Source: a virus
Taxonomy: Duplodnaviria; Caudoviricetes
Length of the DNA stretch: 64,000 nt
Virus record (IMG/VR): IMGVR_UViG_3300032226_000829
Reading direction: 5' to 3' (one strand)
Each line of letters starts with the position of its first letter. Position 1 is the stretch's first letter. Shown one piece after another: positions 8,130-62,806 of this stretch. The position numbers were made by a program, and so were the translations under genes. The notes below the pieces were generated by a model, which saw only the letters and a program-made list of their open reading frames with translations, did no database searches and had not been told where the DNA came from.

Positions 8130-8130
8130 A

Positions 8131-8138: not shown

Positions 8139-8145
8139 GTAGTGT

Positions 8146-9036: not shown

Positions 9037-9037
9037 T

Positions 9038-9484: not shown

Positions 9485-9509
9485 ATATGTGTATTTAATA
9501 AATATAGAC

Positions 9510-10094: not shown

Positions 10095-10102
10095 TGTAAT
10101 AA
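10074..10102 (+). promoter_or_regulatory. Sigma70-type promoter of queD
   Basis: TTGACA-N17-TAATAA. Confidence 0.5.
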
Positions 10103-10113
10103 TATATGATGTT

Positions 10114-10178
10114 TGTAATTTATGACAATTACGCATAGAGGACTTGGTATAATCCCTCTTTAAAAATTCTTCTACCAT
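10114..10178 (+). ncRNA. Candidate preQ1-I-like riboswitch (variant H-type pseudoknot) in the queD 5' UTR
   Basis: P0 GTAATT/AATTAC; P1 AGAGG(10137-41)/CCTCT(10155-59) preceded by C10154; A-rich TTAAAAA linker; P2 TGGTA(10145-49)/TACCA(10173-77). Confidence 0.55.
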
Positions 10179-10198
10179 ATTAAACAATAGGAGATAAT

Positions 10199-10726
10199 AT
10201 GGTGAAATATTACAGTACAAAAACATACGGCAACGACCGAGGTTTGAGTTGTTGTTTTAGACAGTGGCAGAGCACTCATTCACACTGTTCTTTGCTGCAT
10301 GGTTACAGCATAGGTATTAAATTAATTTTTGAATCAGAGACTCTGGATGATCGCAATTGGGTCATGGACTTTGGTGGATTGAAAGCATTCAAAGAATGGA
10401 GTGAACACATGTTTGATCACACATTGGTGGTGGCTGAAAATGATCCACACCTAGACAAATTTAAAGCATTGGCAGCATTGGGATTAAATTCAGTGGGCGG
10501 CATCTGTGATCTACGCATAGTGCCAGCAGTGGGCTGTGAAAAATTCAGCGAGTTGGTTTACAATGAGATGAACAAGATATTGAAAACTTTTCAGTCAGGC
10601 AAGACTTACAAGTTGCCCAACGGTAAAGGATTTGATTGCAGGTATCCTGTGGGTCAAGGAGTCAAATTGCATTCAGTAGAAGTGTTTGAACACGCAGGGA
10701 ATTCGGCCATATATCAAGCACAATAA
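10199..10726 (+). CDS. queD: 6-carboxy-tetrahydropterin synthase / PTPS (QueD family)
   Basis: HCSLLHGYS, WVMDFGGLK, FDHT, GCEKFSE, VEVFEH; AGGAG RBS. Confidence 0.85.
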   Translation: MVKYYSTKTYGNDRGLSCCFRQWQSTHSHCSLLHGYSIGIKLIFESETLDDRNWVMDFGGLKAFKEWSEHMFDHTLVVAENDPHLDKFKALAALGLNSVGGICDLRIVPAVGCEKFSELVYNEMNKILKTFQSGKTYKLPNGKGFDCRYPVGQGVKLHSVEVFEHAGNSAIYQAQ

Positions 10727-10738
10727 ATACTCCTGACC

Positions 10739-46386: not shown

Positions 46387-46680
46387 ATGAAGTACATCAT
46401 TGACATTGACAACACAATTTGCTATAATAAAGACAGCGATTATGTCAACAGTACACCTGACATCACACGCATAGCCCGAGTTAATCAGTTGTATGATGAT
46501 GGACACGAGATTCATTATTACACAGCAAGAGGTGGCAACAGTGGCAAAGACTGGAGTGAGTTAACTCGTCAACAGTTGACTGAATGGGGGTGCAAATTCC
46601 ATTCAGTAAATTTGGGCAAACCAGTGTATGATGTTTGGGTGGATGACAGAGCTGTTAAAGCAGAGGATTTTTTTAAATGA
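46387..46680 (+). CDS. Minimal HAD-family phosphatase
   Basis: IDIDNTI, YTARG, GKP, VDDRA. Confidence 0.8.
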   Translation: MKYIIDIDNTICYNKDSDYVNSTPDITRIARVNQLYDDGHEIHYYTARGGNSGKDWSELTRQQLTEWGCKFHSVNLGKPVYDVWVDDRAVKAEDFFK

Positions 46681-47735
46681 GAATAGATTATAACATACAT
46701 TTGGATTACGCAGACGTACTATTAAAACCCAAAAGATCCACACTGAGTTCAAGACGTGATGTGGACATGACTAGAGATTTCACATTTCGTAACAGCAAAC
46801 AGCAGATCTCATTTGTGCCTGTGGTTGCCAGCAACATGGATGGTGTGGGCACATTCAGTATGGCCAGAGTATTACAAGAATATAAACTTTTAACTGTGTT
46901 AAGAAAACATTACACCATTGCGGATTGGGACAGAGCAATAGGCACAGGATTAAAATTACAATATGTGAGTGCGTGTACAGGCACAGGAGCTATGTGGGAC
47001 AACAATTCACCAGACTATCAAACTTTAAAAAAAGTTATGGAGAAATATCCAGATGTGAGCATGATTACCATAGATGTGGCCAATGCTTATCATGAACAGT
47101 TTGTGGACTTTGTTAAGAGAATAAGATCTGAATTTCCCGACAAGACCATCATAGCAGGCAATGTGGTATCACCAGAGATGGTGGAAGAATTAATCATCAA
47201 TGGAGCAGACGTGGTCAAAGTGGGCATAGGTCCAGGATCAGTGTGTACCACTCGTACACAAACAGGAGTGGGAGTGCCACAGTTTTCTGCCATCATAGAA
47301 TGTGCTGATGCTGCCAACGGAGTGGGTGGACACATCATTGCTGATGGTGGTTGCACACAGCCAGGAGACATAGCCAAAGCATTGGCTGCAGGTGCTCACA
47401 TGGTGATGTTGGGTGGCATGCTGGCAGCACATGATGAATCAGAATTAGAATTGAAAGATGGCAAAAGAGTATTCTACGGCATGAGTTCCGAATCAGCATT
47501 TGAAAAACACGGCGCAAGAAAAGATGGCTACAGAGGCACTGAAGGCAAAACAGTAAAATTAGACAACAAAGGTCCTGTGAAAGACACTGTGGAACAGATA
47601 TTGGGTGGAGTCAGAAGCACTTGCACTTATATAGGAGCAAGAAGAATCAAAGACATGCCCAAGTGTGCTCACTTCGTGAGAGTGAACAATGTGATCAACA
47701 GAGTTTTTGACAGATATGAAACAAATAAAAATTGA
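46677..47735 (+). CDS. guaC: GMP reductase
   Basis: LDYADVLLKPKRS, SNMDGVG, IDVANAY, KVGIGPGSVCTTR, ADGG, FYGMSS, GGVRSTCTYIGA. Confidence 0.93.
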   Translation: MRIDYNIHLDYADVLLKPKRSTLSSRRDVDMTRDFTFRNSKQQISFVPVVASNMDGVGTFSMARVLQEYKLLTVLRKHYTIADWDRAIGTGLKLQYVSACTGTGAMWDNNSPDYQTLKKVMEKYPDVSMITIDVANAYHEQFVDFVKRIRSEFPDKTIIAGNVVSPEMVEELIINGADVVKVGIGPGSVCTTRTQTGVGVPQFSAIIECADAANGVGGHIIADGGCTQPGDIAKALAAGAHMVMLGGMLAAHDESELELKDGKRVFYGMSSESAFEKHGARKDGYRGTEGKTVKLDNKGPVKDTVEQILGGVRSTCTYIGARRIKDMPKCAHFVRVNNVINRVFDRYETNKN

Positions 47736-48007: not shown

Positions 48008-48019
48008 GGATTGGAACAT

Positions 48020-50692
48020 ATGAGTTACATAGACGCATTCTTCGATAGAAATCAAGATTTTATTCGTGTGGTAGAACGCAAAGAAGGCAAAAGAATCTAC
48101 AAAGAATATCCCATTAGATACACATTCTTTTATGAAGATGCCAATGGCAAATTCAAAAGCATATATGGCAATTCTCTCAGCAGAATTGTCAGCAAGAGCA
48201 CCAAAGACTTTCATAAAGAATTAGCCATCAATAGAAACAAAAAATTATTTGAATCCGACATCAATCCCATATTTCAATGTCTCAGTGCCAACTACCTCAA
48301 TCACGATGCTCCCAAACTGAATGTGGCATTTTTTGATATAGAAGCAGACTTTGATCCTGAAAAAGGATTCGCTGATCCCTCAGATCCGTTCATGCCAGTC
48401 ACAGCTATCACTGTGTATCTGCAATGGATAGACAGCATGGTGACTTTTGCACTGATTCCTAAAACCTTAACACTTCAACAAGCCAAGGATCAGACCAAAG
48501 ACACAAAGAATTTATATCTGTATGAGCGTGAAGCAGACATGTTGCAGGCATTTTTAGACATAATAGAAGATGTGGATGTGTTGAGCGGTTGGAACTCAGA
48601 AGGTTATGACATGCCTTATCTAGTGAATAGAGTCAGCAAAGTATTGAGTAAAGATGACACTAGACGTTTTTGTTTATGGTCACAGATGCCTAAAAAAAGA
48701 ACATTTGAAAAGTATGGCAGAGAACAAGAAACTTATGATTTAATAGGCAGAGTACACATAGACAGTTTGGAACTGTATAGAAAATATACCTATGAAGAAC
48801 GCCACACATACAGACTGGATGCCATAGGAGAAATTGAATTGGGAGAAACAAAAACTGTGTATGAAGGCACGTTGGATCAACTGTACAACAATGACTTTAA
48901 AACTTTTATAGAATACAACAGACAAGACGTGCAACTGTTGAACAACTTGGATAAAAAACTTAAATTTTTAGATCTCAGCAATGAACTAGCTCATGCCAAC
49001 ACAGTGCTGATGCAAACTACTATGGGTGCTGTGGCAGTGACCGAACAAGCCATCATCAATGAAGCACACAAAAGAGGATTGCAGGTTCCCAATAGACCAC
49101 ACAGATCCGATGAAGAAAACACCACAGCAGCAGGTGCCTATGTGGCATTTCCCAAAAAAGGACTGCATGATTGGATAGGATCCATGGACTTGAATTCACT
49201 GTATCCAAGTGTGATCAGAGCTCTAAACATGGCTCCTGAATGTGTGGTGGGGCAATTGCGTAACACCTACACAGAATCATTTCTACAGGATCAAATAAAT
49301 CTACAAGGCAAATCATTTGCGGCAGCATGGGAGAATAAGTTTGGCAGTTTGGAGTATGAATATGTGATGACTCAAAGACGAGACATGCCTATCACAATAG
49401 ATTGGGAGAATGGTACCACAGAAGAAAAAAGTGGCGCAGAGATTTACAAGATGATATTTGACAGCCACAAGCCCATCATGATCAGTGCCAATGGCACCAT
49501 GTTTACCACAGAGTTTGAAGGTGTGATTCCTGGATTATTAAAAACATGGTATCAAGAAAGAACTGAGATGCAGGCCATGAAAAAGAAAGCACAAAGTGCC
49601 AGCAATCAAGCAGAGATAGAATTTTGGGACAAAAGACAATTGGTTAAAAAAATTAATTTGAACTCACTGTATGGTGCCATACTTAATCCAGGCTGTAGAT
49701 TCTTTGACAAACGCATAGGACAATCAACCACACTCACAGGTAGAACCATCAGCAAACACATGGCAGCAAAAATAAATGAAGTGATCACAGGCACATACGA
49801 TCATTTGGGAGATGCTGTGATATATGGTGATACAGACTCTGCTTATTTCAGTGCTTATAAAGTTTTAAAGAAAGACATTGATGCTGGATTGATTCCATGG
49901 ACCAAAGAGAGTGTGATCAAACTGTATGATCAAGTGGCTGAAGAAGTCAACAACAGTTTTAAAACATTCATGGGTGAAGCATTTCATTGTCCCAAAACAA
50001 GAGCAGAAGTGATTCAAGCAGGACGTGAATCCATCAGTGAAACAGGATTGTTTATCACTAAAAAAAGATATGCTGTGTTGATATATGAATTGGAAGGCGA
50101 TCGTATGGATGTGAATGGTAAACCAGGCAAGGTAAAAGCCATGGGATTGGATCTTAAACGTTCAGACACTCCGGTGTTTGTGCAGGATTTTTTAAGTGAA
50201 ATATTACTGATGGTGCTGACCAAATCAGACGAAAAAGCAGTATTGGAAAGAATCAGCACATTTAGAAATGAATTTAAATTGCGTCCAGGTTGGGAAAAAG
50301 GTTCTCCCAAACGTGCCAACAATGTGGCAGATTATCAAAGAAAAGAAAAAGCACAAGGCAAAGCCAACATGCCAGGACACGTGCGAGCTTCAATCAATTG
50401 GAACACATTAAAACGTATGAACAATGATCGTTACAGTTTGGAAATTGTGGATGGCATGAAAGTGATTGTGTGTAAACTCAGAAACAATCCTTTGGAGTAC
50501 ACCAGTGTGGCCTATCCCACAGATCAATTGAGAATACCTCAATGGTTTAAAGAATTACCTTTTGATCACTCAGCCATGGAAACCACAGTGATCGATAGTA
50601 AATTGGGCAACCTGTTGGGAGTGCTGGATTGGGATATTCAAAGCACAGAAACAGGCAACACATTCAACACATTATTTGACTTTGGAGATTAA
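48020..50692 (+). CDS. Family B DNA polymerase (T4 gp43-like) with proofreading domain
   Basis: FFDIEAD, GWNSEGYD, YNRQD, DLNSLYPS, KINLNSLYG, YGDTDS, KKRY. Confidence 0.97.
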   Translation: MSYIDAFFDRNQDFIRVVERKEGKRIYKEYPIRYTFFYEDANGKFKSIYGNSLSRIVSKSTKDFHKELAINRNKKLFESDINPIFQCLSANYLNHDAPKLNVAFFDIEADFDPEKGFADPSDPFMPVTAITVYLQWIDSMVTFALIPKTLTLQQAKDQTKDTKNLYLYEREADMLQAFLDIIEDVDVLSGWNSEGYDMPYLVNRVSKVLSKDDTRRFCLWSQMPKKRTFEKYGREQETYDLIGRVHIDSLELYRKYTYEERHTYRLDAIGEIELGETKTVYEGTLDQLYNNDFKTFIEYNRQDVQLLNNLDKKLKFLDLSNELAHANTVLMQTTMGAVAVTEQAIINEAHKRGLQVPNRPHRSDEENTTAAGAYVAFPKKGLHDWIGSMDLNSLYPSVIRALNMAPECVVGQLRNTYTESFLQDQINLQGKSFAAAWENKFGSLEYEYVMTQRRDMPITIDWENGTTEEKSGAEIYKMIFDSHKPIMISANGTMFTTEFEGVIPGLLKTWYQERTEMQAMKKKAQSASNQAEIEFWDKRQLVKKINLNSLYGAILNPGCRFFDKRIGQSTTLTGRTISKHMAAKINEVITGTYDHLGDAVIYGDTDSAYFSAYKVLKKDIDAGLIPWTKESVIKLYDQVAEEVNNSFKTFMGEAFHCPKTRAEVIQAGRESISETGLFITKKRYAVLIYELEGDRMDVNGKPGKVKAMGLDLKRSDTPVFVQDFLSEILLMVLTKSDEKAVLERISTFRNEFKLRPGWEKGSPKRANNVADYQRKEKAQGKANMPGHVRASINWNTLKRMNNDRYSLEIVDGMKVIVCKLRNNPLEYTSVAYPTDQLRIPQWFKELPFDHSAMETTVIDSKLGNLLGVLDWDIQSTETGNTFNTLFDFGD

Positions 50693-51232
50693 ATGGCAAG
50701 ATACGGCATGGTAGATTTGGAAACATTAGGCACAAGACCAGATGCTGCCATATTGACTGTGGGTGCTATCAAGTTTGATCCACATTCAGACTCAGAACCC
50801 TACGAAGGTAGATATTGGAGATTAAATGTGGATGAACAAACAGCATTGGGTAGAACAGTGGACGAAGGTACCATTGAATGGTGGGGCCGACAGGCACCTG
50901 AGATACGTGATGAGGCATTGGGAGACACAGATCGTGTGATCATAGCAGACTTTGCCAAAGAATTCAACAAATGGTGTGTGGGATTGGATCAGCTGTGGTG
51001 TCAAGGTCCATTGTTTGATTATGCCATCATACAAAATTTATATGACCAAGCTCGCACTCCTGTGCCTTTCAACTATTGGCAAATCAGAGACAGTCGCACA
51101 CTGTTTGATTTGATGCCACAGGATCCTAGAAAGAGCATGCAGAGCAGTCTACACAACGCATTGGCTGATTGTTACTATCAAGCCAAATGTGTGCAACAAG
51201 TTTTTAAACATTTAGGAGTAAAGAAAAAATGA
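50693..51232 (+). CDS. DEDDh 3'-5' exonuclease (DexA/Rv2179c-like)
   Basis: MVDLETLG...FDY...HNALAD. Confidence 0.85.
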   Translation: MARYGMVDLETLGTRPDAAILTVGAIKFDPHSDSEPYEGRYWRLNVDEQTALGRTVDEGTIEWWGRQAPEIRDEALGDTDRVIIADFAKEFNKWCVGLDQLWCQGPLFDYAIIQNLYDQARTPVPFNYWQIRDSRTLFDLMPQDPRKSMQSSLHNALADCYYQAKCVQQVFKHLGVKKK

Positions 51233-51960
51233 AAATATTATTGACAGGACATCTAGGGTTTATAGGCAGTGCTTTGTACAATGAACTGATCAAAGAACAC
51301 ACAGTGATAGGCATAGACATCAAAGATGGCAAAGATTTATTAACTTGTGATTTGAATTACACAGTGGATCTTGTGATACATTTGGCAGGAATAGCTTCTG
51401 TAAGAGATAGTCTTAAAGATCCTTTAAAATACTGGCATAATAATGTGTTGGCCAGTCAAAAAGTATTTGATTCATTTAAAGACACAAGAATTATATATGC
51501 TAGTTCCAGTTCAGCTGTTGAACCATCATTAAATCCTTATGGATTTAGTAAATTTGCTCTTGAAAAAATTGCACCAAAAAACAGTTTGGGTTTAAGATTT
51601 ACCACTGTGTGGGCTGAAGATGGCCGCTCAGATATGTTTATGTCAAAATTATTTAAAAATAATATTCAATACATCACTAACCATCATAGAGATTTTGTAC
51701 ATGTGTCTGACATAATATCAGCAATTAAATTATTAATGAACAAAGACATCACAGGAGTAATGGATGTAGGTACCGGAATCAGCAACAGTTTAAAAATTTT
51801 GGTTGATTTAGCAGGCATCAAGAATTATGAATCCGAATTAGGTGACGTATATGAAAGAATGGACAATTGTGCCGATATCAAAGAATTAAGAGATTTAGGT
51901 TGGGAACCAAAAGTTAACGTGATTAATTACATAAAAAACAAATATCACTTGACTTCTTAG
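51229..51960 (+). CDS. NAD-dependent epimerase/dehydratase (extended SDR)
   Basis: TGHLGFIG, HLAG, YASSSS, YGFSK, RDFVHVSD. Confidence 0.9.
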   Translation: MKILLTGHLGFIGSALYNELIKEHTVIGIDIKDGKDLLTCDLNYTVDLVIHLAGIASVRDSLKDPLKYWHNNVLASQKVFDSFKDTRIIYASSSSAVEPSLNPYGFSKFALEKIAPKNSLGLRFTTVWAEDGRSDMFMSKLFKNNIQYITNHHRDFVHVSDIISAIKLLMNKDITGVMDVGTGISNSLKILVDLAGIKNYESELGDVYERMDNCADIKELRDLGWEPKVNVINYIKNKYHLTS

Positions 51961-51977
51961 CCAGGCCTAAATATAAT
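51949..51977 (+). promoter_or_regulatory. Sigma70-type promoter
   Basis: TTGACT-N17-TATAAT. Confidence 0.7.
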
Positions 51978-52756: not shown

Positions 52757-54220
52757 ATGCACACTGACTTAACAGCACAGCAAAAAGACTATGCAGTGTT
52801 TCTGCCGGCGTTGAGCAGTTTCTATGCAAGAGATTTGGGCAAGGCCAGACATGAGAAGGATTATATCCTGCCTCACAGAATTCCGGCTGCTTTTAATCAT
52901 GGCATAGAAGGCATGAATTATCTTGTGCCCACCAACACATATTTTCATTACAGATGGCATTTGTACAGTGCAGGTCATGCTGACTTGAACATGGACAAAT
53001 TTAGTGCCAGAGATGACATCATAAGAAATCGAGATAGAAAAACCAGTTTTGTACTGGGTGATTCAGGAGGGTTTCAGATTGGTAAAGGAGTATGGGAAGG
53101 CAATTGGAAAGATCCCACTTGTCCTCGAGCCAAGAAGAAGCGAGAACAGGTGCTCACTTGGATGGATGCCAACATGGATTATGGTATGATATTGGATATT
53201 CCAGCATGGGTTTCACGTTCTCCAGAAGGTGCCAAAGCCAGCAATATCAACTCCTATCAGGAAGCAGTGGATGGCACAAGAATCAATAATGATTACTTCA
53301 TGAAGACTAGAACAGGTGCTTGTAAGTTTTTAAATGTGCTGCAAGGTGAAAACTTTCAACAAGCAGATGATTGGTATCAGCAGATGAAAGATTACTGCGA
53401 TCCTAAAAAATATCCCACAACTCACTTTAATGGTTGGGCAATGGGTGGTCAGAACATGTGTGATGTGCATCTTATATTGAAAAGATTAGTGGCATTAAGA
53501 TTTGATGGTTTATTAGAAAAAGGCATTCATGATTGGATGCATTTTTTAGGCACATCCAAACTGGAATGGGCAGTGCTATTGACAGACATCCAAAGAGCAG
53601 TAAGAAAATATCACAATCCAAACTTTACTGTGTCATTTGATTGTGCTTCACCTTTCTTAGCATCAGCCAATGGACAAATTTACACAGAAGTGGATGTCAG
53701 AGACAAACAAAAATGGTCATATAGAATGGCTGCCAGCATAGATGATAAAAAATATGCCGGTGACACCAGAGCATTTAGAGATGCTGTGTTACAAGAAAAG
53801 ATATTTGACAATTTTCAAGACAGTCCTATCAGTAAAAGATTACAGTTGAAAGATGTCACTTGTTATGCTCCAGGAGATAAAAACAAAGTGGGCGGTGATC
53901 CCAAAACATCTTGGGATTCATTCAGTTATACCTTACAAATGGCACACAATGTTTGGACACACATCAATGCTGTGCAAGAAGCCAACAGACAGTATGATGC
54001 AGGATTAACTCCACGCATGTTGGTGGAAGAAAAGTTTGATAAAGTGGCATTCAAAGACATAGTGGAAGCAATATTTGCCACAGACAACAGAGACACAGCA
54101 GAAGCAGTGATTGAGGAATACAGCAGATTTTGGATGAGTATCATAGGTACCAGAGGCGCCACAGGCAAAAAAACAGTGAATGCTTCAACACAGTTTTCTA
54201 ACTTATTTGAGGAGGTATAA
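52757..54220 (+). CDS. dpdA: TGT-fold base-exchange enzyme, DpdA-like DNA 7-deazaguanine transglycosylase
   Basis: GDSGGFQ, MILDIP, VLQG, AMGG, HFLG, SFDC, AHN: the TGT catalytic and substrate motifs. Confidence 0.75.
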   Translation: MHTDLTAQQKDYAVFLPALSSFYARDLGKARHEKDYILPHRIPAAFNHGIEGMNYLVPTNTYFHYRWHLYSAGHADLNMDKFSARDDIIRNRDRKTSFVLGDSGGFQIGKGVWEGNWKDPTCPRAKKKREQVLTWMDANMDYGMILDIPAWVSRSPEGAKASNINSYQEAVDGTRINNDYFMKTRTGACKFLNVLQGENFQQADDWYQQMKDYCDPKKYPTTHFNGWAMGGQNMCDVHLILKRLVALRFDGLLEKGIHDWMHFLGTSKLEWAVLLTDIQRAVRKYHNPNFTVSFDCASPFLASANGQIYTEVDVRDKQKWSYRMAASIDDKKYAGDTRAFRDAVLQEKIFDNFQDSPISKRLQLKDVTCYAPGDKNKVGGDPKTSWDSFSYTLQMAHNVWTHINAVQEANRQYDAGLTPRMLVEEKFDKVAFKDIVEAIFATDNRDTAEAVIEEYSRFWMSIIGTRGATGKKTVNASTQFSNLFEEV

Positions 54221-54221
54221 T

Positions 54222-54416
54222 ATGAGTAAGAAAAATAAAAGTTTAAAGAAATTAGAACATGAGTTTGATTACTATCATAGAAAAACTGAAGAAATGGAAC
54301 AAGAGCGAGAACATGATAGAAGTTGGGAGAGTAAAGCATTATTAAAGAATTATAAGAAAATTAAACTGGCAATCAAAACACAGATAGAAGAATACAGAAA
54401 ACAATTAAAAGCATGA
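54222..54416 (+). CDS. Small coiled-coil protein (DUF465-like)
   Basis: GGAGG RBS; LKNYKKIKLAIK. Confidence 0.55.
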   Translation: MSKKNKSLKKLEHEFDYYHRKTEEMEQEREHDRSWESKALLKNYKKIKLAIKTQIEEYRKQLKA

Positions 54417-55300
54417 AAACATTGGTTATAGGATTGGGTATTGGACAATTGTATGTTAGAGTCTTAACACAGTTGGGTCATACAGTATTCACAGTGGATC
54501 CTGATCAAAACAAACAAGCCACATTCACAAATTTAAAAACAGCTCTATTGGCTCATCCCAAATTGGATGCAGTGTTCATATGCACTCCTAATTATACACA
54601 TGATTCAATAGCTCAAACAGTTGCACCACACAGTAGAGTGGTATTTGTAGAAAAACCAGGAGTGCTTAATTCTAAAAGATGGCAGAGTCTTCAACTCACA
54701 TATCCAAACGCTAAATTTATCATGATGAAAAACAATATGTGGCGCACAGTGGAAGAAGAAATGCGTATTAGAATAGATGATGCTGAAGAAATACATATTA
54801 ATTGGATCAATCGTAATAGAGTGCCTGCACCAGGCAGTTGGTTTACCACTAAAAAATTATCATTTGGTGGAGTCAGCAGAGATCTTATGCCACATTTATT
54901 GAGTATGTTCATCTGGTTGAATCCTGATACATATTCTCAATATCAAATAGTTTCTTCCAATCGTAAACAAAATTGGAAATTAAGTGATCTTACTGATACA
55001 GAATATGGTGCAGTAAATTTAGATGGCACATATGATGTGGATGATTGGGCTGAAATGGTGTTCAATAACGGTAAAAAAACATTCAAACTTACTGCTGATT
55101 GGCGCAGTATGGACAAAGATGACAGAGCACTGCACTGTTATAAAAGAGAAAAATTAATTAAAAGTTTTGAACTAGGATTATGTCCTGAATCAGCTTATGC
55201 TGCAATGATTCAAGATGTTTTCAATAATATTAACCATGAAGAGTTTTGGAATCAACACAAGCAGTATGATGTGTGGATTCATAATTTAATCAATGACTGA
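54413..55300 (+). CDS. Gfo/Idh/MocA family oxidoreductase
   Basis: VIGLGIG, FICTPNYTH, VEKPG, GGVSRDLMPH. Confidence 0.88.
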   Translation: MKTLVIGLGIGQLYVRVLTQLGHTVFTVDPDQNKQATFTNLKTALLAHPKLDAVFICTPNYTHDSIAQTVAPHSRVVFVEKPGVLNSKRWQSLQLTYPNAKFIMMKNNMWRTVEEEMRIRIDDAEEIHINWINRNRVPAPGSWFTTKKLSFGGVSRDLMPHLLSMFIWLNPDTYSQYQIVSSNRKQNWKLSDLTDTEYGAVNLDGTYDVDDWAEMVFNNGKKTFKLTADWRSMDKDDRALHCYKREKLIKSFELGLCPESAYAAMIQDVFNNINHEEFWNQHKQYDVWIHNLIND

Positions 55301-56201
55301 AACTAAACTGTTATACACCAAAGGAGATGGCATGTTTCATGAAGGAACCATTGACATTCCTGCAGTGAAAGATAATCAGATTCAAGTAAAAAATATCATG
55401 ACAGGAGTATGTCGCAGTGATGTGGACATGATGTTGGGCAAATTCAAAACATTACCATTAAACATGCAAGGTCATGAAGGATTGGCTCAGGTCACACAAG
55501 TGGGTGCTCATGTGCGAGATGTTCAGGTGGGAGATCATGTGGCTACCAGAGGTGAACCTGCTTATGCTGATATTTACAATTGTGATTTTGAAACTTATGT
55601 TAAAGTTCCCACAGCAGATCCCAAATACATTGTGGAACCTGTGGCATGTGGCATTAATGTGATCAAACAATTTGAAACTGCCATTGCTCACAAAGCCAAC
55701 TACAACAGTAGACTGCTGCTGATAGGCAGTGGATTTTTATCCTATGTGGTTTACACCTATCTAAAAATAAAAAATTATCATTTTGATATCACTGTGTTGG
55801 GCAATCATAACAAACAGTTTTGGGGAGATAAACTCACTCACAATGCTGAAGGCGTGTTTGATGTTATTATAGATTTGAACAACAGATCAGAGGTGTTTGA
55901 CAAGAACATGTTTAACACTGAAGCATTGTTGATACTGGCTGCTGAAAAAACAGAATCCATTCGCACTAATTTTGCTGATTTATTATGGAATGCTGTAACA
56001 GTAGGCTTTCCTAGTCCTAGAAATAAAAAATTTATAGAGTGCATGCGTGAAGCAGTGGAATTAATCTCTGCAGGCAAACTGGATGTGTCTAATTTTTGGA
56101 CCAAAGGTTACAGCAGAAGCACAGAGTGGAACAATGCATTTGCAGATGCTACAAATAGAAAAAATGGCTATGCCAGAGGTTATATAGATTGGAGAAAATA
56201 A
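55293..56201 (+). CDS. Zn-dependent medium-chain dehydrogenase (MDR)
   Basis: GVCRSD, GHEG...VG..V...VGDHV, VEPVAC, LIGSG; lacks the structural-Zn lobe. Confidence 0.85.
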   Translation: MTETKLLYTKGDGMFHEGTIDIPAVKDNQIQVKNIMTGVCRSDVDMMLGKFKTLPLNMQGHEGLAQVTQVGAHVRDVQVGDHVATRGEPAYADIYNCDFETYVKVPTADPKYIVEPVACGINVIKQFETAIAHKANYNSRLLLIGSGFLSYVVYTYLKIKNYHFDITVLGNHNKQFWGDKLTHNAEGVFDVIIDLNNRSEVFDKNMFNTEALLILAAEKTESIRTNFADLLWNAVTVGFPSPRNKKFIECMREAVELISAGKLDVSNFWTKGYSRSTEWNNAFADATNRKNGYARGYIDWRK

Positions 56202-56722
56202 TGTTGGACACACAATCAAGAAAAAAAGTAAAATTTTTTATAGGCAAAGAAGTGGAGAACACTGCTATGAAAGATCAAACCACACTGTTTGTGGTGGGTG
56301 TACAAAACGTGGTGAATATTATAAAGTACATCATGCAAACTGATGTGGAACATGTGTATCTAGGAACCAGTCAAAGTTTTACTCCCAACTCCAAAGAAGA
56401 ATGGCAGGATTGGAATAATTTGATCAATAAATTATTGGAAGGTGGTTATTGGGTTACATTGGATTATGATGTGCAATATGCTGAAGAAGTCAGCAAAATG
56501 AACTGGCATCTAAACAATCACTTTATCAATATGATATCTGTCAAAATACCCAATATCAAAGTATTCAATGCCAACACAGTGATCAAATTGGATGATGTCA
56601 CTTGGGGTGCTACCAATACAGGAGTTTGGACACATGATTTGGAAAAATTAATGACCAAAAAAACCTATACAGATTGGAGTGAATACAAAGGAGATCACCC
56701 TATAGACATTGACAGTGATTAA
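56201..56722 (+). CDS. Hypothetical protein inside the modification cluster
   Basis: FFIGKEVE...HVYLG...VTLD...KLDD....TNTGVW. Confidence 0.7.
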   Translation: MLDTQSRKKVKFFIGKEVENTAMKDQTTLFVVGVQNVVNIIKYIMQTDVEHVYLGTSQSFTPNSKEEWQDWNNLINKLLEGGYWVTLDYDVQYAEEVSKMNWHLNNHFINMISVKIPNIKVFNANTVIKLDDVTWGATNTGVWTHDLEKLMTKKTYTDWSEYKGDHPIDIDSD

Positions 56723-56750
56723 AAAAGTTGTTATACTATAAACCTAAATA
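56709..56750 (+). promoter_or_regulatory. Tandem sigma70 and late promoters before dpdL
   Basis: TTGACA-N17-TATACT followed by CTAAATA. Confidence 0.6.
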
Positions 56751-56759
56751 CTGAAACAC

Positions 56760-57161
56760 ATGAGCAATTTAAAATCTAAAATTTGGGTTACATTTCGCAG
56801 AGAAGGCATACACAAGTATCCTGCAGCATTAACAGATCCAAAATTAAAAACTGGTGATGAATATGATGTGAGTTTTTTGGGTTATCCTCACAGACACATA
56901 TTTCATTTTAAGGTGGCTATTGAAGTGTTTCATGATGATAGAGACATTGAGTTTATACAGTTTAAAAGATGGTTGGAAAACTTGTATGGCAAAGGCACAT
57001 TAGAGTTGGATTATAAAAGTTGTGAAATGATTGGCGCTGATCTTTATCAACAGATCAATTCAAGATATCCCAATAGAGAAGTCACAATAGACGTGAGCGA
57101 AGATGGTGAGAACGGTGCCACAATGACTTGGGCAGCCAATTCATCCATAACAATCAACTAG
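56760..57161 (+). CDS. dpdL: QueD-paralogous T-fold protein, DpdL-like (CDG decarboxylase)
   Basis: EGIHKYP, LGYPHRHIF (LxxxHRHxF in place of QueD CxxxHGH), DRDIEF, SCE, VSEDGENG. Confidence 0.7.
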   Translation: MSNLKSKIWVTFRREGIHKYPAALTDPKLKTGDEYDVSFLGYPHRHIFHFKVAIEVFHDDRDIEFIQFKRWLENLYGKGTLELDYKSCEMIGADLYQQINSRYPNREVTIDVSEDGENGATMTWAANSSITIN

Positions 57162-57169
57162 GGCGGGCC

Positions 57170-58261
57170 ATGAAGATTTACATTGTGGATCTAGAAGAAG
57201 TAGAAACTAGATATACCAAACAATGGAAAAAATATCTACCCATTCAATTAAAAAGACACACCAATAATGAAATCCAAGTGATCAGCGGAGGAAATGCTGT
57301 GAAAAGTACCACCCCGGGTGCTTTTTTAAACTTTGGATTCACCAACATGTACAAGAGCAGACAATTGGAACAGATTGCTGAAATGTTCTGCAATGGAGAT
57401 ATCAAAGATGGTGATTATTTCTTATACACTGATGCTTGGAATCCCACAGTGCTGCAACTCAAGTACATGGCAGAATTATTAAATGTAAAAATTAAAATAG
57501 GTGGCATGTGGCACGCAGGATCATATGATCCACAAGACTTTTTGGGCAGACTGATAGGTGATAAACCTTGGGTGCGTCTGGCTGAACGCAGCATGTTTGA
57601 ATCATTTGATCACAATTACTTTGCCACTGATTTTCATATTGATATGTTCTTACACAATTTGATGGATCTGGGCAGACTGGCTGACAAAGAAACTGTGGAT
57701 CAAATGTTTCACACAGGCAAAATAGTGAGATCGGGATGGCCCATGGAATATTTGGATGCTGACTTGACTGGTTATAAAAACATTGAAAAAAAGAATATTA
57801 TTCTTTTCCCGCATAGATTGGCTCCGGAAAAACAACACAACATATTTCAAGATTTGGCAAAAGAAATGCCACAGTATGAATTTGTCACTTGTTTGGATCG
57901 TTGCCAGTCAAAAAATGACTATCACAATCTTTTAGCAGAAGCCAAATTGATTTTCAGTGCTAATTTACAAGAAACATTAGGAATCAGTTGGTATGAAGGT
58001 GCAGTATTAGGAGTTATTCCAATGATTCCTGATCGTTTAAGTTACAAAGAAATGGCTCAAGAAGAATTCAAATATCCTTCAGAATGGACAGAATCTTTTG
58101 AGCTGTATAAGAAACACAAAGATTTGTTAAAAGCAAGAATAGATGACTATATGATCAACTACAAAAAGTATGCTCCATTGGTACACAAACAAAAAATATC
58201 ATTGGCTGAAAACTTTTTTAGTGGCAAACAACTTTACCAAAGGATTACAAATGGAAAATAA
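57170..58261 (+). CDS. GT-B (GT4-like, retaining) glycosyltransferase
   Basis: FPHRLAPEK and ETLGISWYE (E-x7-E); HAGSYD. Confidence 0.85.
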   Translation: MKIYIVDLEEVETRYTKQWKKYLPIQLKRHTNNEIQVISGGNAVKSTTPGAFLNFGFTNMYKSRQLEQIAEMFCNGDIKDGDYFLYTDAWNPTVLQLKYMAELLNVKIKIGGMWHAGSYDPQDFLGRLIGDKPWVRLAERSMFESFDHNYFATDFHIDMFLHNLMDLGRLADKETVDQMFHTGKIVRSGWPMEYLDADLTGYKNIEKKNIILFPHRLAPEKQHNIFQDLAKEMPQYEFVTCLDRCQSKNDYHNLLAEAKLIFSANLQETLGISWYEGAVLGVIPMIPDRLSYKEMAQEEFKYPSEWTESFELYKKHKDLLKARIDDYMINYKKYAPLVHKQKISLAENFFSGKQLYQRITNGK

Positions 58262-58622
58262 AACTTTAGAACAAAATCAACCAGACAGCACAACGTATAA
58301 AGTAGATATAAACTATCAAGCAAATGTGGGCACAAATAACATTGTGGCCAGCACAGTGAGCGTGCCATATGGATTTGGTGGATCAGGCAATGGTGTTACT
58401 ACCACAGGCATAGATTTTGAAGCAGATGCAATGAAAGGTATAAACTTTGAGGATTACAAACTGCCTATTATGTTTGAGGATATCATGCCTGAAATGCACA
58501 AAATAAAAGAAATGTGTGAGTTGTATCCGTCATTGGATATTGCTTTTCAAAAATTTAAAAATGTTTACAATATTGTGATAGATGATTATGACAATAAAAT
58601 GCAACTGAAAATGCCTTTTTAA
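58251..58622 (+). CDS. Hypothetical protein
   Basis: C-terminal MCELYPSLDIAFQKFKNVY. Confidence 0.6.
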   Translation: MENKTLEQNQPDSTTYKVDINYQANVGTNNIVASTVSVPYGFGGSGNGVTTTGIDFEADAMKGINFEDYKLPIMFEDIMPEMHKIKEMCELYPSLDIAFQKFKNVYNIVIDDYDNKMQLKMPF

Positions 58623-58623
58623 T

Positions 58624-59079
58624 ATGGAAACAGCCAATAAAAATTATTTTACCATGATCCAGATGCGTGCAGCTCTGCTGAATATACATCAGCAATTGAC
58701 TGAACAACAATGGCAACCTCAGGTAATATTAGGATTAAACAGAGGAGGATGTATTCCTGCTATCTATTTGTCACACAAATTGGATGTTCCTCATCATGTG
58801 TTAAATGTAAGTTTACGAGATCATGCTGATACTCCTGATTTACACACATTGGAAAAAGTATATGCTTGGCAAAAAAGAGTATTGATAGTGGATGATATCA
58901 ATGATACAGGTGCCACATTTAATTATATTATGAATAACTTTGGCAAACCAGAAAGATTAAAGTTTGCTGTGATATTGCACAACACAGTGAGCACCTACAA
59001 AGATATAGATTACAAAGGTTATGAAATCAACAAACTGGAAGATCCACGTTGGATAGTGTTTCCTTGGGAGCAATGGTAG
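58624..59079 (+). CDS. Type I purine phosphoribosyltransferase (Gpt-like)
   Basis: LGLNRGGCIPA, VLIVDDINDTGAT, WIVFPWE. Confidence 0.9.
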   Translation: METANKNYFTMIQMRAALLNIHQQLTEQQWQPQVILGLNRGGCIPAIYLSHKLDVPHHVLNVSLRDHADTPDLHTLEKVYAWQKRVLIVDDINDTGATFNYIMNNFGKPERLKFAVILHNTVSTYKDIDYKGYEINKLEDPRWIVFPWEQW

Positions 59080-59080
59080 T

Positions 59081-59458
59081 ATGGAAAAAATTGACACTTT
59101 GAATCAAGCTCAAAAAGAAGGCAGAGCTCCTTGGACCAAAGTGATATATGATTTGAAAGATTGTGTGTGGTATGAGGATGGATATCCTGTGACTGAAGGA
59201 CATGCATTGCTGGTACCCAAACAAGCCAGTCAAAATATGATTGTGAAATGTTTTGAATTAGCATTAAAAATTGGCAATGAAAATATTGCCAAAGGTTTGA
59301 TTGACGGCTACAACATAGGTATCAACATGGGCGAGGCAGCAGGTCAAACTGTTCCTTATCCGCATGTTCATTTGATTCCAAGACGCAAGGGTGACATGGA
59401 AGATCCTAGGGGTGGGGTACGGCATGTGATCCCTCACAAAGGAAATTATAAAAAATGA
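59081..59458 (+). CDS. HIT-family nucleotide hydrolase
   Basis: PVTEGHALLVPK, GEAAGQTVPYPHVHLIPR. Confidence 0.9.
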   Translation: MEKIDTLNQAQKEGRAPWTKVIYDLKDCVWYEDGYPVTEGHALLVPKQASQNMIVKCFELALKIGNENIAKGLIDGYNIGINMGEAAGQTVPYPHVHLIPRRKGDMEDPRGGVRHVIPHKGNYKK

Positions 59459-60282
59459 GCAGAGCACTTTTCATAGGAGACAGTCACACTTGTGGATATG
59501 TCACTGTGCCTAACAAAACAGGTCCAGGCAGTTATACCTATTGGAATGATAACAACTATGCTGAAATTTACAACACAGTGAACGATAAACCCGTGAGTAT
59601 CTATGCACATGCTGGAACTGTCAATAGAATGTACACTGATTGGATGAAACACATGTTTAACACATTTCCAGACACCGATGAAGTTTTTCTTTGTTTGGCT
59701 CCATTGAATAGATTTGTGTTGGCTTTTGATGAGAAACTCACAGATGAAGCACTGCCTTTGGATTATTTTGTGCATGAATGTGTGGAAAGCACACCCACAG
59801 TAAAAAAGTATATGGATTTATTGGTCAAAGAAGGCAGAGTGCAATTATACAACAAACCCACAGCAGAAGATTATGAAAAATTTCCAGGTTTAAAAATTTC
59901 TGAAACAGATGGATTGCAACAACCGGACATAAGAAAAAACACATTTATGGAGATAAAATTATTTTTTGAATTGAACACACATTTGGAAAGACGTGATTTT
60001 TTATTGAATGTGTTTGCTTGGGATAGAATTTGTGCTGAAAACAATGCCAAACTTTATGTGTTTAATTTTATGAATAGATTGAAATGGCCCAAGAGTTTGG
60101 AATATTACGGTGCATTAAAAAATACCACAGTAGCAAAAAAAACTGTTGAGCAATATATGTTGGACAATGGCATTGATCCTCAAAAATATTTGCTGCATGA
60201 CAAAGAACATTACAATACAGAATATCACAAAACGATTGTGGAAAGATACATACCATGGCTAAAAAATCAAAAAAAATCCTAA
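59455..60282 (+). CDS. SGNH/GDSL-like hydrolase or acyltransferase
   Basis: FIGDSHTCG; C-terminal DKEHY (DxxH). Confidence 0.65.
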   Translation: MSRALFIGDSHTCGYVTVPNKTGPGSYTYWNDNNYAEIYNTVNDKPVSIYAHAGTVNRMYTDWMKHMFNTFPDTDEVFLCLAPLNRFVLAFDEKLTDEALPLDYFVHECVESTPTVKKYMDLLVKEGRVQLYNKPTAEDYEKFPGLKISETDGLQQPDIRKNTFMEIKLFFELNTHLERRDFLLNVFAWDRICAENNAKLYVFNFMNRLKWPKSLEYYGALKNTTVAKKTVEQYMLDNGIDPQKYLLHDKEHYNTEYHKTIVERYIPWLKNQKKS

Positions 60283-60872
60283 TCATTGGTGATAGTTTTG
60301 CTTGTGAGTGGCCCAATGGCCTTGCTGGATGGCCCGCTCAGTTGGCTCAACAACATGATGTGACCAATTTGGCTCAGGCAGGTGTGGGCGAATATAAAAT
60401 ATTAAGACAACTGCTAAACTTTACCAAAGAAAATCCTTGGTGGCAGCATGACTATGATTGTGTGATTGTGTGTCATACCAGTCCCAGCAGAGTACACACT
60501 CCCGTTCATCCCATACACAAAGAAGGACTGCACAAAGATTGTGATCTCATATGGAATGACATTGAATCTCGCAACAGTTGGTTCAATAAAAGTTTAGACA
60601 CTGCTAAAAATTGGTTCAAGTATCACTATGATGATCAATACCAAAAAGACATCTACAGATTGATACGCAGAGATATCAACAGAAAACTGGAGCAAATCAC
60701 CAGTTTACACATAGATAATTTTGGTATCAGTAACCATTTTGTTGAGGAACAGAATCTGTTGGACTTCAGTATGATCTGGCCTAACTACAGAGGAGAAATT
60801 AATCATTACAATGATGAAGGAAACCAAATTGTTTTGGCACAAATCATTGACAAACTGGAACAAATCTGTTAA
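60255..60872 (+). CDS. SGNH/GDSL-like protein
   Basis: IIGDSF, NLAQAG, NHYNDEGN. Confidence 0.65.
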   Translation: MAKKSKKILIIGDSFACEWPNGLAGWPAQLAQQHDVTNLAQAGVGEYKILRQLLNFTKENPWWQHDYDCVIVCHTSPSRVHTPVHPIHKEGLHKDCDLIWNDIESRNSWFNKSLDTAKNWFKYHYDDQYQKDIYRLIRRDINRKLEQITSLHIDNFGISNHFVEEQNLLDFSMIWPNYRGEINHYNDEGNQIVLAQIIDKLEQIC

Positions 60873-60895
60873 AATAGTACAATATAAGGAGTATA

Positions 60896-61582
60896 ATGAA
60901 AGTATCAGAAAAGATTAAACAAAGACTGATTGAGGCTGGTGTGAATTATCATGCTGATGATAATATTTCAGCCTATGTTGAAAAAGATGAACTGGTTCTA
61001 TTGGAAAAAGAATTAACAGAATCATTCAAATCTGTTTTAAACAGTCTTGTGATTGATACTGAAAATGATCCTAATAGTAAAAACACAGCACACAGACTGG
61101 CCAAGATGTATTTGAAAGAATTAATGAGTGGAAGATATGAATCCAGACCTGATGCCACAGCATTTCCCAATGTGGGAGAAAATGCCTACACAGGCATGTT
61201 GGTGGTGCGTAGTGAATTAAAATCAGTGTGCAGTCATCATCATCAACCAGTGAGCGGAGTAGCATACATTGGAATCATACCCAATGGCAAAGTGATAGGA
61301 TTGAGCAAATACACAAGAATAGCACAATGGTGTGCTAGAAGAGGCACACTGCAAGAAGCACTGTGCAATAACATTGCCAATGAGATTGAAATGGCCACTG
61401 GAGCCAAAGATCTAGGAGTGTACATACAAGCCACACATGGCTGTTGTGAAAACAGAGGCATAATGGCACACAGTTCATTGACTCAGACCACTGTGTTAAA
61501 AGGTGCTTTCAAAGATGATGCTGGCACTAAAAAAGAATTTATGGATAATATTAACCTGCAACAACAATTTGCACCAAGATAG
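60896..61582 (+). CDS. folE: GTP cyclohydrolase I
   Basis: TAHRLAKMY, SVCSHHH, GLSKYTR, LQE, HGCCENRG; promoter TTGACA-N17-TAAAAT at 60847. Confidence 0.95.
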   Translation: MKVSEKIKQRLIEAGVNYHADDNISAYVEKDELVLLEKELTESFKSVLNSLVIDTENDPNSKNTAHRLAKMYLKELMSGRYESRPDATAFPNVGENAYTGMLVVRSELKSVCSHHHQPVSGVAYIGIIPNGKVIGLSKYTRIAQWCARRGTLQEALCNNIANEIEMATGAKDLGVYIQATHGCCENRGIMAHSSLTQTTVLKGAFKDDAGTKKEFMDNINLQQQFAPR

Positions 61583-61591
61583 GAGACACAG

Positions 61592-61795
61592 ATGACCAAT
61601 AAAGAAGGACCATTTTACGCAGCATTCGGAGGTGATACCACAGGTATTATCAAACAAGAATTAATCACTTACAAAGTTAAAGATGGTGTGCTGTACAAAG
61701 AAACAGTGAAGAGAGATTATCACAGCCAAGGAGATTACATTGATTCATGTGAGTCAATTCCTTTGAAAGAAAACAAACATGAACATACAGCCTAA
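61592..61795 (+). CDS. Small hypothetical protein
   Basis: AGGAG RBS. Confidence 0.6.
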   Translation: MTNKEGPFYAAFGGDTTGIIKQELITYKVKDGVLYKETVKRDYHSQGDYIDSCESIPLKENKHEHTA

Positions 61796-61946
61796 AGACA
61801 CCAGTAAAGGTCATTTCTATGTGTCACTAATCAAGAGTGCATTTAGAATCATTGCAGGCATTAGTTTAATATTTGGTAACTTTATTACTGCTGGATTTTT
61901 ATTCATACTGGCAGAATTATTAGGAGTGGTAGAGGAATTAGTATAA
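61779..61946 (+). CDS. 55-aa membrane protein (not in ORF track)
   Basis: MNIQPKDTSKGHFYVSLIKSAFRIIAG...AELLGVVEELV; TAATG overlap with queE. Confidence 0.65.
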   Translation: MNIQPKDTSKGHFYVSLIKSAFRIIAGISLIFGNFITAGFLFILAELLGVVEELV

Positions 61947-62806
61947 TGAGCAAAATTAAAATAGCAGAATTATTTTACAGCATACAAGGAGAAGGCAGGT
62001 ACATGGGTGTGCCTTCAGTGTTCTTGAGAACATTTGGCTGCAACTTTACTTGTGCTGGCTTTGGTTTGCCTCGAGGCATGCGTAGTGATGAGAATGACAA
62101 AGTATTTGAACAGCACAAACAATTTCCTTTTAAAAGCTATGAAGAATTGCCATTGGTGAACACAGGCTGTGATTCGTATGCATCTTGGGATCCTCGATTC
62201 AAAGATTTATCTCCCATGCTGACATCAGATGCTATTGTGGAAAGAACAATGGAAATATTGCCACACAAACAATGGGTGGATGAACATTTTATATTCACAG
62301 GCGGTGAACCATTGCTGGGTTGGCAACGTGCTTATCCAGATGTATTGGAACATGCAAAGATGCAGGCTTTAAAAGAGATCACTTTTGAAACCAATGGCAC
62401 ACAAAAACTACACAAAGATTTTAAAGATTATTTGACTCAATGGAATCAGAAGAATGGTAGAACTAAAGAATCCATATCATTCTCTGTGAGTGCAAAATTA
62501 AGTGTGAGCGGAGAAAAACGTGAAGAAGCTATACTGCCTGAAGTGGTGGCAGAATATGGAGATGTAGGGCATGTGTATTTGAAATTTGTGGTGGCCACCA
62601 AGGAAGATGCTGATGAGGCATTCCAAGCAGTGGCTGATTATCGTAAAGCAGGATTCTCGGGATCAGTTTATTTGATGCCTGTGGGTGGAGTAGAAAGTGT
62701 CTATCATATGAACAATAGAACAGTGGCAGAACTGGCAATGAAGATGGGATATAGATACAGTGATAGATTACAAGTGCCATTGTTTAAAAACGCATGGGGT
62801 ACATAA
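61946..62806 (+). CDS. queE: 7-carboxy-7-deazaguanine synthase (radical SAM)
   Basis: ELFYSIQGEG..MGVPSVFLRTFGCNFTC...CDS, FTGGEP, ETNGT, SVSAK, RLQ. Confidence 0.9.
   Translation: MSKIKIAELFYSIQGEGRYMGVPSVFLRTFGCNFTCAGFGLPRGMRSDENDKVFEQHKQFPFKSYEELPLVNTGCDSYASWDPRFKDLSPMLTSDAIVERTMEILPHKQWVDEHFIFTGGEPLLGWQRAYPDVLEHAKMQALKEITFETNGTQKLHKDFKDYLTQWNQKNGRTKESISFSVSAKLSVSGEKREEAILPEVVAEYGDVGHVYLKFVVATKEDADEAFQAVADYRKAGFSGSVYLMPVGGVESVYHMNNRTVAELAMKMGYRYSDRLQVPLFKNAWGT

Follow-up and report, generated by a model that had tools for sequence, protein, structure and literature searches.

A QueC-less, DpdL-type 7-deazaguanine cluster in a marine phage clade and its linked GT4-type glycosyltransferase: a candidate route to a sugar-bearing DNA base

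We asked whether a phage gene cluster that would place a 7-deazaguanine in DNA could also attach a sugar to it. The question is raised by a 64,000-nucleotide stretch of Caudoviricetes DNA (IMG/VR record IMGVR_UViG_3300032226_000829; this whole stretch is called the window below), in which positions 52757-62806 form a single co-directional gene run. A first-pass annotation, made by reading the window without database searches, had seen here a 7-deazaguanine pathway mixed with sugar-transfer and redox genes and had proposed a new glycosylated base. The genes that it listed are all real ORFs (open reading frames) on the + strand, at the positions it gave, and family searches, folds and the gene calls of near relatives agree with its list. 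Our analysis supports the cluster as a QueC-less, DpdL-type 7-deazaguanine DNA-modification system and finds a strong genetic link between this system and a glycosyltransferase (GT); the comparative linkage of the GT with the DpdA-like and DpdL genes is what is new here. That the GT is a dedicated extension of the system, with a sugar-bearing deazaguanine as the candidate product, is a reading to which we give an even chance. The genes on which it depends are the following (aa, amino acids; CDG, 7-carboxy-7-deazaguanine):

52757..54220, + strand: DpdA-like TGT-fold transglycosylase of a divergent large subfamily, 487 aa (AF2, i.e. AlphaFold2, model; fold match, motifs, hhalign)
56201..56722, + strand: conserved 173-aa protein, core member of the cluster (homologue of ACP17 gp122)
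56760..57161, + strand: DpdL-like T-fold protein, 133 aa, proposed CDG decarboxylase (LGYPHRHIF; phrog_17812)
57170..58261, + strand: GT4-type GT-B glycosyltransferase, 363 aa (AF2 model, pLDDT 82; fold matches BshA, MshA, PimA)
60896..61582, + strand: GTP cyclohydrolase I, FolE (PF01227, E 6e-41; phrog_2197; NCBIfam folE)
61946..62806, + strand: QueE-like radical SAM enzyme, CDG synthase (phrog_2076, E 6e-50; NCBIfam QueE models match below their cut-offs)
10199..10726, + strand: QueD-like 6-carboxytetrahydropterin synthase, remote from the cluster (PF01242, E 7e-14)

Which of these proteins would act on the DNA itself? The AF2 model of the 487-aa protein (pLDDT 92) has the fold that the first-pass annotation had assigned to it: the best 50 Foldseek matches listed were all TGTs (best E ∼1e-6), and VIA-align superimposed the model on TGTs with Z scores of 18-19 over ∼300 residues (Z 18.8 over 306 residues for the T. 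maritima TGT). In an hhalign comparison with E. coli Tgt, GDSGGFQ of the phage protein was paired with TDSGGFQ, LDIP with FDEC, GWAMGG with GYAVGG and FDCASP with FDCVMP. D102, S103 and G105 (in GDSGGFQ) and D295 (in FDC) were invariant in an alignment of 41 diverse DpdA-like homologues, and D102 and D295 align with the E. coli Tgt catalytic motifs TDSGGFQ and MFDCV. A library scan for the family gave 981 representatives at 50% clustering. The protein had no Pfam (including PF01702) or NCBIfam (including TGT models) match at E ≤0.01 and no PHROG match, and sequence and profile searches against PDB sequences came back empty. The comparison with named subfamilies by sequence covered DpdA1 of phage 9g, to which no relation was detectable, and DpdA3 of phage phiST, to which hhalign gave only a partial match (76%); the DpdA proteins of phages ACP17 and BUDD were matched with 95% probability. 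The closest viral fold matches were TGT-like proteins of large size from phages (Vibrio phages 2.275.O and nt-1 among them), together with phiST DpdA3, and some of these viral matches are annotated as TGT or queuine tRNA-ribosyltransferase. Two homologues, gp168 of the Pseudomonas phage PA5oct and protein _468 of Vibrio phage 2.275.O, adjoin que genes. From fold, catalytic motifs and gene context we infer that the DpdA-like protein swaps guanine in DNA for a deazapurine; we place it as DNA-acting because its gene lies by a replication module and que genes and because PA5oct DNA carries a modified G.

We then considered what this enzyme would insert. In DpdL, the signature LxxxHRHxF replaces the CxxxHGH of a QueD-like T-fold protein (PMC10516641), and LGYPHRHIF of the 133-aa protein fits this signature exactly. 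By tblastn the protein is 33% identical over 91% of the query (E 5e-9) to phiST CGPG_00067, the founding DpdL, and 55% identical to ACP17 gp125. Its gene is found with FolE, QueD, QueE and a DpdA-like gene and without QueC, the company in which a DpdL is expected. The absence of queC that had been reported for the window held in a tblastn search, in which neither QueC nor QueF was detected; QueC was also not found in five relatives, including a 256-kb record rated 72% complete. The queD gene at 10199 was likewise borne out by its Pfam match; in its protein the motif reads CSLLHGY where CxxxHGH is expected, with the Cys retained and the second His replaced by Tyr.

The GT gene most likely starts at the ATG at 57170, 9 nt past the dpdL stop, and it thus lies directly after dpdL as first described. 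The best fold matches of its model were BshA, MshA, PimA and GlgM (E 1e-8 to 1e-10, TM ∼0.6). The EX7E motif (E268-x7-E276) is intact, and both Glu residues are invariant among the closer GT members; E268, R216 and K221 are invariant across nine GT sequences down to 24% identity. In the GT4 family an Arg/Lys pair binds the donor diphosphate, and the pattern of invariant residues is as would be expected of an active enzyme that uses a nucleoside diphosphate (NDP)-sugar. The match to Pfam Glycos_transf_1 was below threshold (19 bits against a cut-off of 26.4), as it was for 9 of 18 homologues, and sequence and profile searches against PDB sequences found nothing. A GTDC1-type queuosine mannosyltransferase, considered as a possible analogue, was set aside: it was not among the best 30 Swiss-Prot fold matches, and the GT had no DUF3524 Pfam hit.

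Is the position of the GT accidental? To address this, proteins of the window were compared by tblastn with 91 loci, and counts were taken over the 46 metagenomic loci in which the sequence 3' of the DpdA-like gene extends for 5 kb or more. The 173-aa protein, DpdL and the GT were present in all 46, at a median of 1.5 kb 3' of the DpdA-like gene. The phosphoribosyltransferase (PRTase) was found in 43, FolE in 42 and the HIT hydrolase in 33, and the pair of Gfo/Idh/MocA and MDR (medium-chain dehydrogenase/reductase) genes in 11; the loci with this pair span several sub-lineages (67-98% identity of the DpdA-like protein). Thus, of the extra genes for which co-occurrence with dpdA and dpdL had been suggested as a check, the GT and the 173-aa ORF do co-occur with them, and the two dehydrogenases, which had been cast as builders of the sugar, are accessory.

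The same association was seen outside the clade. Among 50,697 phage records the GT family was matched in 22 and DpdL in 28, with both in 17. In PA5oct, a Pseudomonas jumbo phage (Wroclawvirus), gp168-gp162 run in the order DpdA-like gp168 (36% identity), GT gp167 (45%), DpdL gp166 (57%), another gene, an SDR (short-chain dehydrogenase/reductase) fragment (gp164), PRTase and QueE, in one run by polB; this phage differs from the window in having no detectable 173-aa homologue and, instead of the Gfo/MDR pair, the SDR fragment. The Acidovorax phage ACP17 carries a compact cluster (gp119-gp126) of QueD, FolE, gp122, DpdA, GT, DpdL and QueE; its DpdA belongs to another subfamily (19% identity), and genes for a PRTase, a HIT protein and dehydrogenases are absent. 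In Phosso the order is DpdL, GT, one other gene, FolE and, further on, QueE; in BUDD/X1 it is (as read in BUDD) FolE, a PAPS-reductase-like gene, two others, GT, DpdA, DpdL and QueE; and in BCSR5 it is QueD, DpdL, AAA_28, a PAPS-reductase-like gene, PIG-L, one other gene, GT, DpdA-like and, further on, QueE. The five GT records without a DpdL match are PhiXhv-12, which we examined, and four records of equal identity to the query. In PhiXhv-12 (4864-8950) a GATase-QueC fusion (PF06508, E 2e-49; annotated as the glutamine-fructose-6-phosphate aminotransferase GlmS) is followed by PIG-L, GT and Gfo/Idh/MocA genes, which looks like a second, DpdL-independent pairing of deazaguanine and sugar genes. 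Hence gene orders vary across lineages, and the GT stays near the DpdA-like gene and/or DpdL in at least six phage lineages. Around it stand sugar-type enzymes that differ from lineage to lineage (PIG-L deacetylase, Gfo/Idh/MocA, SDR, GNAT, MDR).

A scan of 185,579 species genomes with a six-sequence GT alignment gave 12 loci, several of them on phage contigs that carry the full cluster and were mis-binned. Bacterial genome records account for four (Pelagibacterium, Methylobacterium sp. NFXW15, a Sulfitobacter metagenome-assembled genome and Pseudooctadecabacter jejudonensis CECT 8397), and in each of these the GT directly adjoins a DpdA-like gene and a small Vut_1 (YhhQ-type) transporter-like protein whose family match is just below threshold. 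Because phage and bacterial loci pair the GT and the DpdA-like gene under differing precursor routes, the GT tracks the transglycosylase and not any single route.

Some further features of these loci were recorded. The Pseudooctadecabacter jejudonensis locus (L108, 7401-12318) has a double Dcm methylase among its neighbours, another locus (L105) has a serine recombinase and VapE, and L107 and L108 share a conserved 585-aa protein and a second GT4 gene. In some marine relatives a YhhQ/Vut_1-type transporter gene lies just 5' of the GT (L053 11466-12008, L031 6880-7422, L040, L047); it is homologous to a gene in the que cluster of Vibrio phage 2.275.O, in which the gene 3' of the DpdA-like gene showed no homology to the GT.

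The remaining genes in and directly upstream of the cluster are these:

46677..47735, + strand: GMP reductase, GuaC type (NF003470, 477 bits against a cut-off of 397)
48011-50692, + strand: polB, 893 aa, uninterrupted, 5' of the cluster
51229..51960, + strand: short extended-SDR sugar-nucleotide epimerase or dehydratase (PF01370, phrog_540; TGxxGxxG and YxxxK read)
54222..54416, + strand: small ORF, ∼64 aa (gene call in near relatives; no family hit)
54413..55300, + strand: Gfo/Idh/MocA NAD(P) oxidoreductase, accessory (PF01408 and PF22725 above cut-off)
55293..56201, + strand: Zn-MDR-type dehydrogenase, 302 aa, accessory, always paired with the Gfo gene (PF08240, ADH_N, 40.6 bits against a cut-off of 23.5)
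58251..58622, + strand: small ORF, ∼121-123 aa (gene call in relatives; weakly conserved, 24 of 46 loci)
58624..59079, + strand: 6-oxopurine (xanthine/guanine-type) PRTase (PF00156; PDB purine PRTase/XGPRT; NCBIfam xanthine PRTase; PA5oct gp163 homologue)
59081..59458, + strand: Hint-like HIT nucleotide hydrolase (PF01230; PDB HIT/Hint matches)
59455..60282, + strand: possible SGNH/DUF6071-like protein, 275 aa (GDSH and DKEH motifs; Atlas lead to viral families only)
60255..60872, + strand: possible SGNH/DUF6071-like protein, 205 aa (GDSF motif; Atlas lead to DUF6071/Lipase_GDSL clusters; 7 of 46 loci, closest relatives only)

Family matches bear out the oxidoreductase, dehydrogenase, PRTase and HIT assignments of the first-pass annotation. 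The Gfo/Idh/MocA protein has the motifs EKP (VEKPG) and DxxxH (DLMPH), and its best PDB matches, which are weak, are sugar or cyclitol dehydrogenases (DgpA, glucuronide-3-dehydrogenase, inositol dehydrogenase). The MDR protein keeps the zinc ligands C41 and GHE, and its C-terminal dinucleotide motif is degenerate (GSGFLS). The 173-aa protein has 17 invariant residues in its alignment and matched nothing in Pfam or among PDB sequences; hhalign found no homologue of it among the neighbouring genes of phiST, PA5oct, BUDD and Phosso. A MupG_N identity was rejected for it (Atlas score 0.84, under the reliable range). Acylation of the sugar by the two SGNH proteins had also been suggested. Neither had a Pfam, PHROG or NCBIfam hit, and the only blocks that can be read are block I (GDSH, GDSF) and one DxxH; an SGNH identity is possible, from motifs and a language-model lead, and it is the weakest item of the gene list.

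Upstream of the cluster, the gene order includes polB, an Rv2179c-type exoribonuclease, the short SDR epimerase and a 242-aa protein. PolB and the epimerase are confirmed, and the probable clamp is the 242-aa protein, which matches a gene annotated as sliding clamp in Phosso. The polB of the window is intact, and the PA5oct homologue (5605-10831) is split by a homing-endonuclease insertion. The SDR gene was found in 29 of the 62 loci with enough 5' flank and is a possible source of donor sugar. The full-length GMP reductase stands ∼5 kb 5' of the cluster, just before polB, a position kept only in the closest relatives; its tie to the cluster is uncertain, and it may shift purine pools while G is replaced. 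In some relatives (L004-L006, ∼7100-9000; L010, 7813-8448) a UDP-glucose/GDP-mannose dehydrogenase fragment, a cytidylyltransferase-like gene and 2OG-Fe(II) oxygenases occur between polB and the clamp or inside the cluster, and this region appears to be a hotspot of sugar/redox gene swapping.

How might these enzymes work together? By their family assignments, FolE, QueD and QueE would turn GTP into CDG, and the DpdL-like protein would convert CDG to 7-deazaguanine, as proposed for phiST. Judging from its fold, catalytic motifs and context, the DpdA-like enzyme would exchange guanine in DNA for the deazapurine. The GT would move a sugar from an NDP-sugar onto the deazapurine, before or after its insertion, a step proposed from synteny, and virion DNA would then contain a deazaguanine with a sugar attached. 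Lineage-specific enzymes (here Gfo/Idh/MocA, Zn-MDR and SDR, perhaps also the SGNH-like proteins) probably tailor the sugar or its donor; BshA pairs with the deacetylase BshB and MshA with MshB (LmbE/PIG-L), and by analogy the PIG-L partners in PhiXhv-12 and BCSR5 suggest a HexNAc donor in these phages. The PRTase would most simply recycle the guanine freed by base exchange, or salvage deazapurine. One guanine would be released per modified site, and a 6-oxopurine PRTase could therefore return guanine to the GTP pool that feeds FolE. Two published observations speak for this reading. Restriction sites that contain G resist cutting in PA5oct DNA, which nucleases that sense hypermodification do attack; its modified G is of unsolved chemistry (PMC12191111). 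ACP17 dpdA and dpdL alone gave no dDG (2'-deoxy-7-deazaguanosine) in E. coli, and the authors suggested that further enzymes may be needed (PMC10516641).

Several points weigh against a sugar-bearing base. The phiST dpdA/dpdL pair likewise failed in E. coli (PMC10516641), so GT-bearing phages are not alone in this failure, and phiST itself reaches 100% dDG (PMC10516641) with no match to the GT in its genome, which makes the GT dispensable for the basic route. Chemically, the chief obstacle is the lack of any obvious O or N handle at C7 of 7-deazaguanine. The first-pass annotation had considered reduction of the 7-substituent to a hydroxymethyl handle, of which we found no indication. Moreover, the GT co-occurs with differing deazapurine routes (DpdL, Gat-QueC, a transporter alone), which leaves no evident common acceptor, and its isoelectric point of 6.6 is near neutral, unlike that of many DNA-binding enzymes. 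On the same side we list a structure-based complex prediction for the DpdA-like protein and the GT, although its score of 0.02 weighs neither way. In sum, of the proposed glycosylated deazaguanine the genetic half has held up (all 46 loci, at least six phage lineages and four bacterial records), and the chemical half is drawn from synteny.

One way around the missing handle is pure speculation, and we consider it improbable: the sugar could be joined by a C-C bond to C7 of 7-deazaguanine, giving a C-glycosylated purine analogue in phage DNA. Decarboxylation by DpdL would free an electron-rich pyrrole C7-H, which would attack the glycosyl donor bound to the GT4 enzyme; the sugar would then be varied by oxidoreductases or deacetylases that differ between lineages. 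If C7, which is nucleophilic, were the site of a C-glycosidic bond, the pairing of DpdL with the GT would become understandable.

Could the base instead be plain dDG, with the GT and the sugar and redox genes merely co-located in an early/middle nucleotide-metabolism region and directed at another target (a hydroxylated pyrimidine, a virion or host protein, the envelope)? We regard this as unlikely. It is what phiST would lead one to expect, having dDG and DpdL and no GT, and marine relatives carry UDPG_MGDP_dh, epimerase and cytidylyltransferase genes like the arabinosyl-5-hydroxycytosine (arabinosyl-5hoC) genes of RB69 and DLP3. A ThyA homologue is present in one relative but was not found in four of the five, including the 72%-complete 256-kb record, and mere co-location sits poorly with a GT that lies beside the DpdA-like gene and/or DpdL in at least six phage lineages of differing gene order and on four bacterial records. 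Somewhat less likely again is that the GT, PRTase, HIT protein and GMP reductase work on deazapurines in free form, as bases or nucleotides, so that the product is a nucleotide, a glyco-conjugate metabolite or a dNTP for replication. In toyocamycin and tubercidin biosynthesis a PRTase and a GMP-reductase-type enzyme act on deazapurines; here 43 of the 46 loci, and PA5oct too, have a PRTase of 6-oxopurine type, a genuine GMP reductase is encoded 5 kb 5' of the cluster, and the nearest GT structures, BshA and MshA, take small-molecule acceptors. However, the compact clusters of ACP17, BUDD and the bacterial records do without PRTase, HIT and GMP reductase and yet keep the GT and the DpdA-like gene, and the constant presence of a DNA transglycosylase points to post-replication modification.

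The adjacency of the GT and the DpdA-like gene, invariable even in the minimal bacterial loci, would also suit a GT-fold protein that serves as an accessory or regulatory partner of the transglycosylase (e.g. by binding DNA or a nucleotide cofactor) and does not glycosylate the final base. This we think very unlikely, as sequences down to ∼24% identity all keep the first Glu of EX7E together with the Arg/Lys pair typical of NDP-sugar binding, and PIG-L deacetylases and sugar oxidoreductases keep company with the GT. Finally, the TGT fold and the alignment of the catalytic motifs with E. coli Tgt are shared with enzymes that act on tRNA, and the DpdA-like protein might modify tRNA in a queuosine-like way. 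We give this the least credence of all: the CxCxxC...H zinc subdomain of tRNA TGTs is absent from the protein, which has only two Cys after D295; the gene stands beside polB and the clamp gene, in a replication module; the nearest viral fold matches include phage TGT-annotated proteins and phiST DpdA3; and the related phage PA5oct has G-modified DNA (PMC12191111).

A deazaguanine pathway with a dedicated GT would resemble known systems in part. It shares with the phiST dDG system (Cui, Hutinet et al., NAR 2023, PMC10516641) FolE, QueD, QueE, a DpdL with LxxxHRHxF, a TGT-fold DNA transglycosylase, the absence of QueC and adjacent replication genes. The dDG of phiST appears in mass spectra as an [M+H]+ ion of 267 and a base ion of 151 (PMC10516641). 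The transglycosylase here is 487 aa long and of a distant subfamily, whereas phiST DpdA3 has 259 aa, and the GT4 enzyme, the 173-aa protein, PRTase, HIT and the variable sugar/redox enzymes have no counterpart in phiST. As in the T-even 5-hydroxymethylcytosine glucosyltransferase and arabinosyl-5hoC systems (PMC13326640), where a handle-bearing base in DNA receives a sugar from a phage GT and the tailoring genes vary, a GT and variable sugar enzymes accompany a modified base; here, however, a purine analogue would be set in by transglycosylation, the GT is of BshA/MshA type and not of the T4 AGT/BGT type, and there is no evident hydroxyl handle. With BshA and MshA themselves the GT shares the fold, EX7E and the Arg/Lys pair, and its homologues in PhiXhv-12 and BCSR5 the PIG-L partner, but sequence identity reaches only 10-16%, the acceptor domain bears no sequence relationship to theirs, and the context is DNA modification and not thiol biosynthesis. 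To our knowledge, the natural sugar-bearing DNA bases are pyrimidines (glucosyl-hydroxymethylcytosine, arabinosyl-hydroxycytosine) or base J, and all eight 7-deazaguanine DNA derivatives bear small substituents. The first-pass annotation knew of no glycosylated 7-deazaguanine in phage DNA, and our literature searches found no description of one.

Which phage carries the cluster? The window has ∼38% GC and nearly all of its genes on the + strand. A search of the 10-kb cluster region against the 50,697 phage records gave no near-identical cultured phage, and the nearest record found was a 47.8-kb IMG/VR fragment rated 13% complete. As marine contigs of 200-335 kb, Tara contigs among them, encode homologues of the key proteins, the source is best described as an uncultured marine jumbo phage. 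Two protein searches each gave at least 8000 candidate matches, many of them Tara records, which indicates that the clade is very abundant in ocean metagenomes. Elsewhere in the window are a 2185-aa ORF (13829-20386) in a stretch of raised G+C (0.45-0.48, against ∼0.38 elsewhere), an ATP-dependent DNA ligase (5023-6357), a UvdE-like UV endonuclease fragment (11493-12068) and an Fe/Mn superoxide dismutase (12557-13126). Three near-consensus sigma-70-like promoters (11 of 12 matches) precede the dpdL-GT pair (56709-56737), folE (60847-60875) and the clamp-like gene (51949-51977); the total of promoter-like sites was not above the shuffled expectation.

If the DNA of these phages does carry a sugar-bearing deazaguanine, it would represent a new chemical class of DNA base, and were the C-glycoside reading also true, no glycosylated purine-type base, and no base modification in the form of a C-glycoside, would have been reported before it in any natural DNA. 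Such a base would explain the unsolved G modification of PA5oct, a therapy-relevant jumbo phage, and might explain why reconstitution with ACP17 dpdA and dpdL failed. The pair of GT and DpdA-like genes in bacterial records is a hint that cells, too, may have such a modification. Cultured phages carry the GT together with deazaguanine genes, so the reading is directly testable. Given the abundance of the clade in the ocean, the modification could affect the sequencing, restriction and defence sensing of marine phage DNA.

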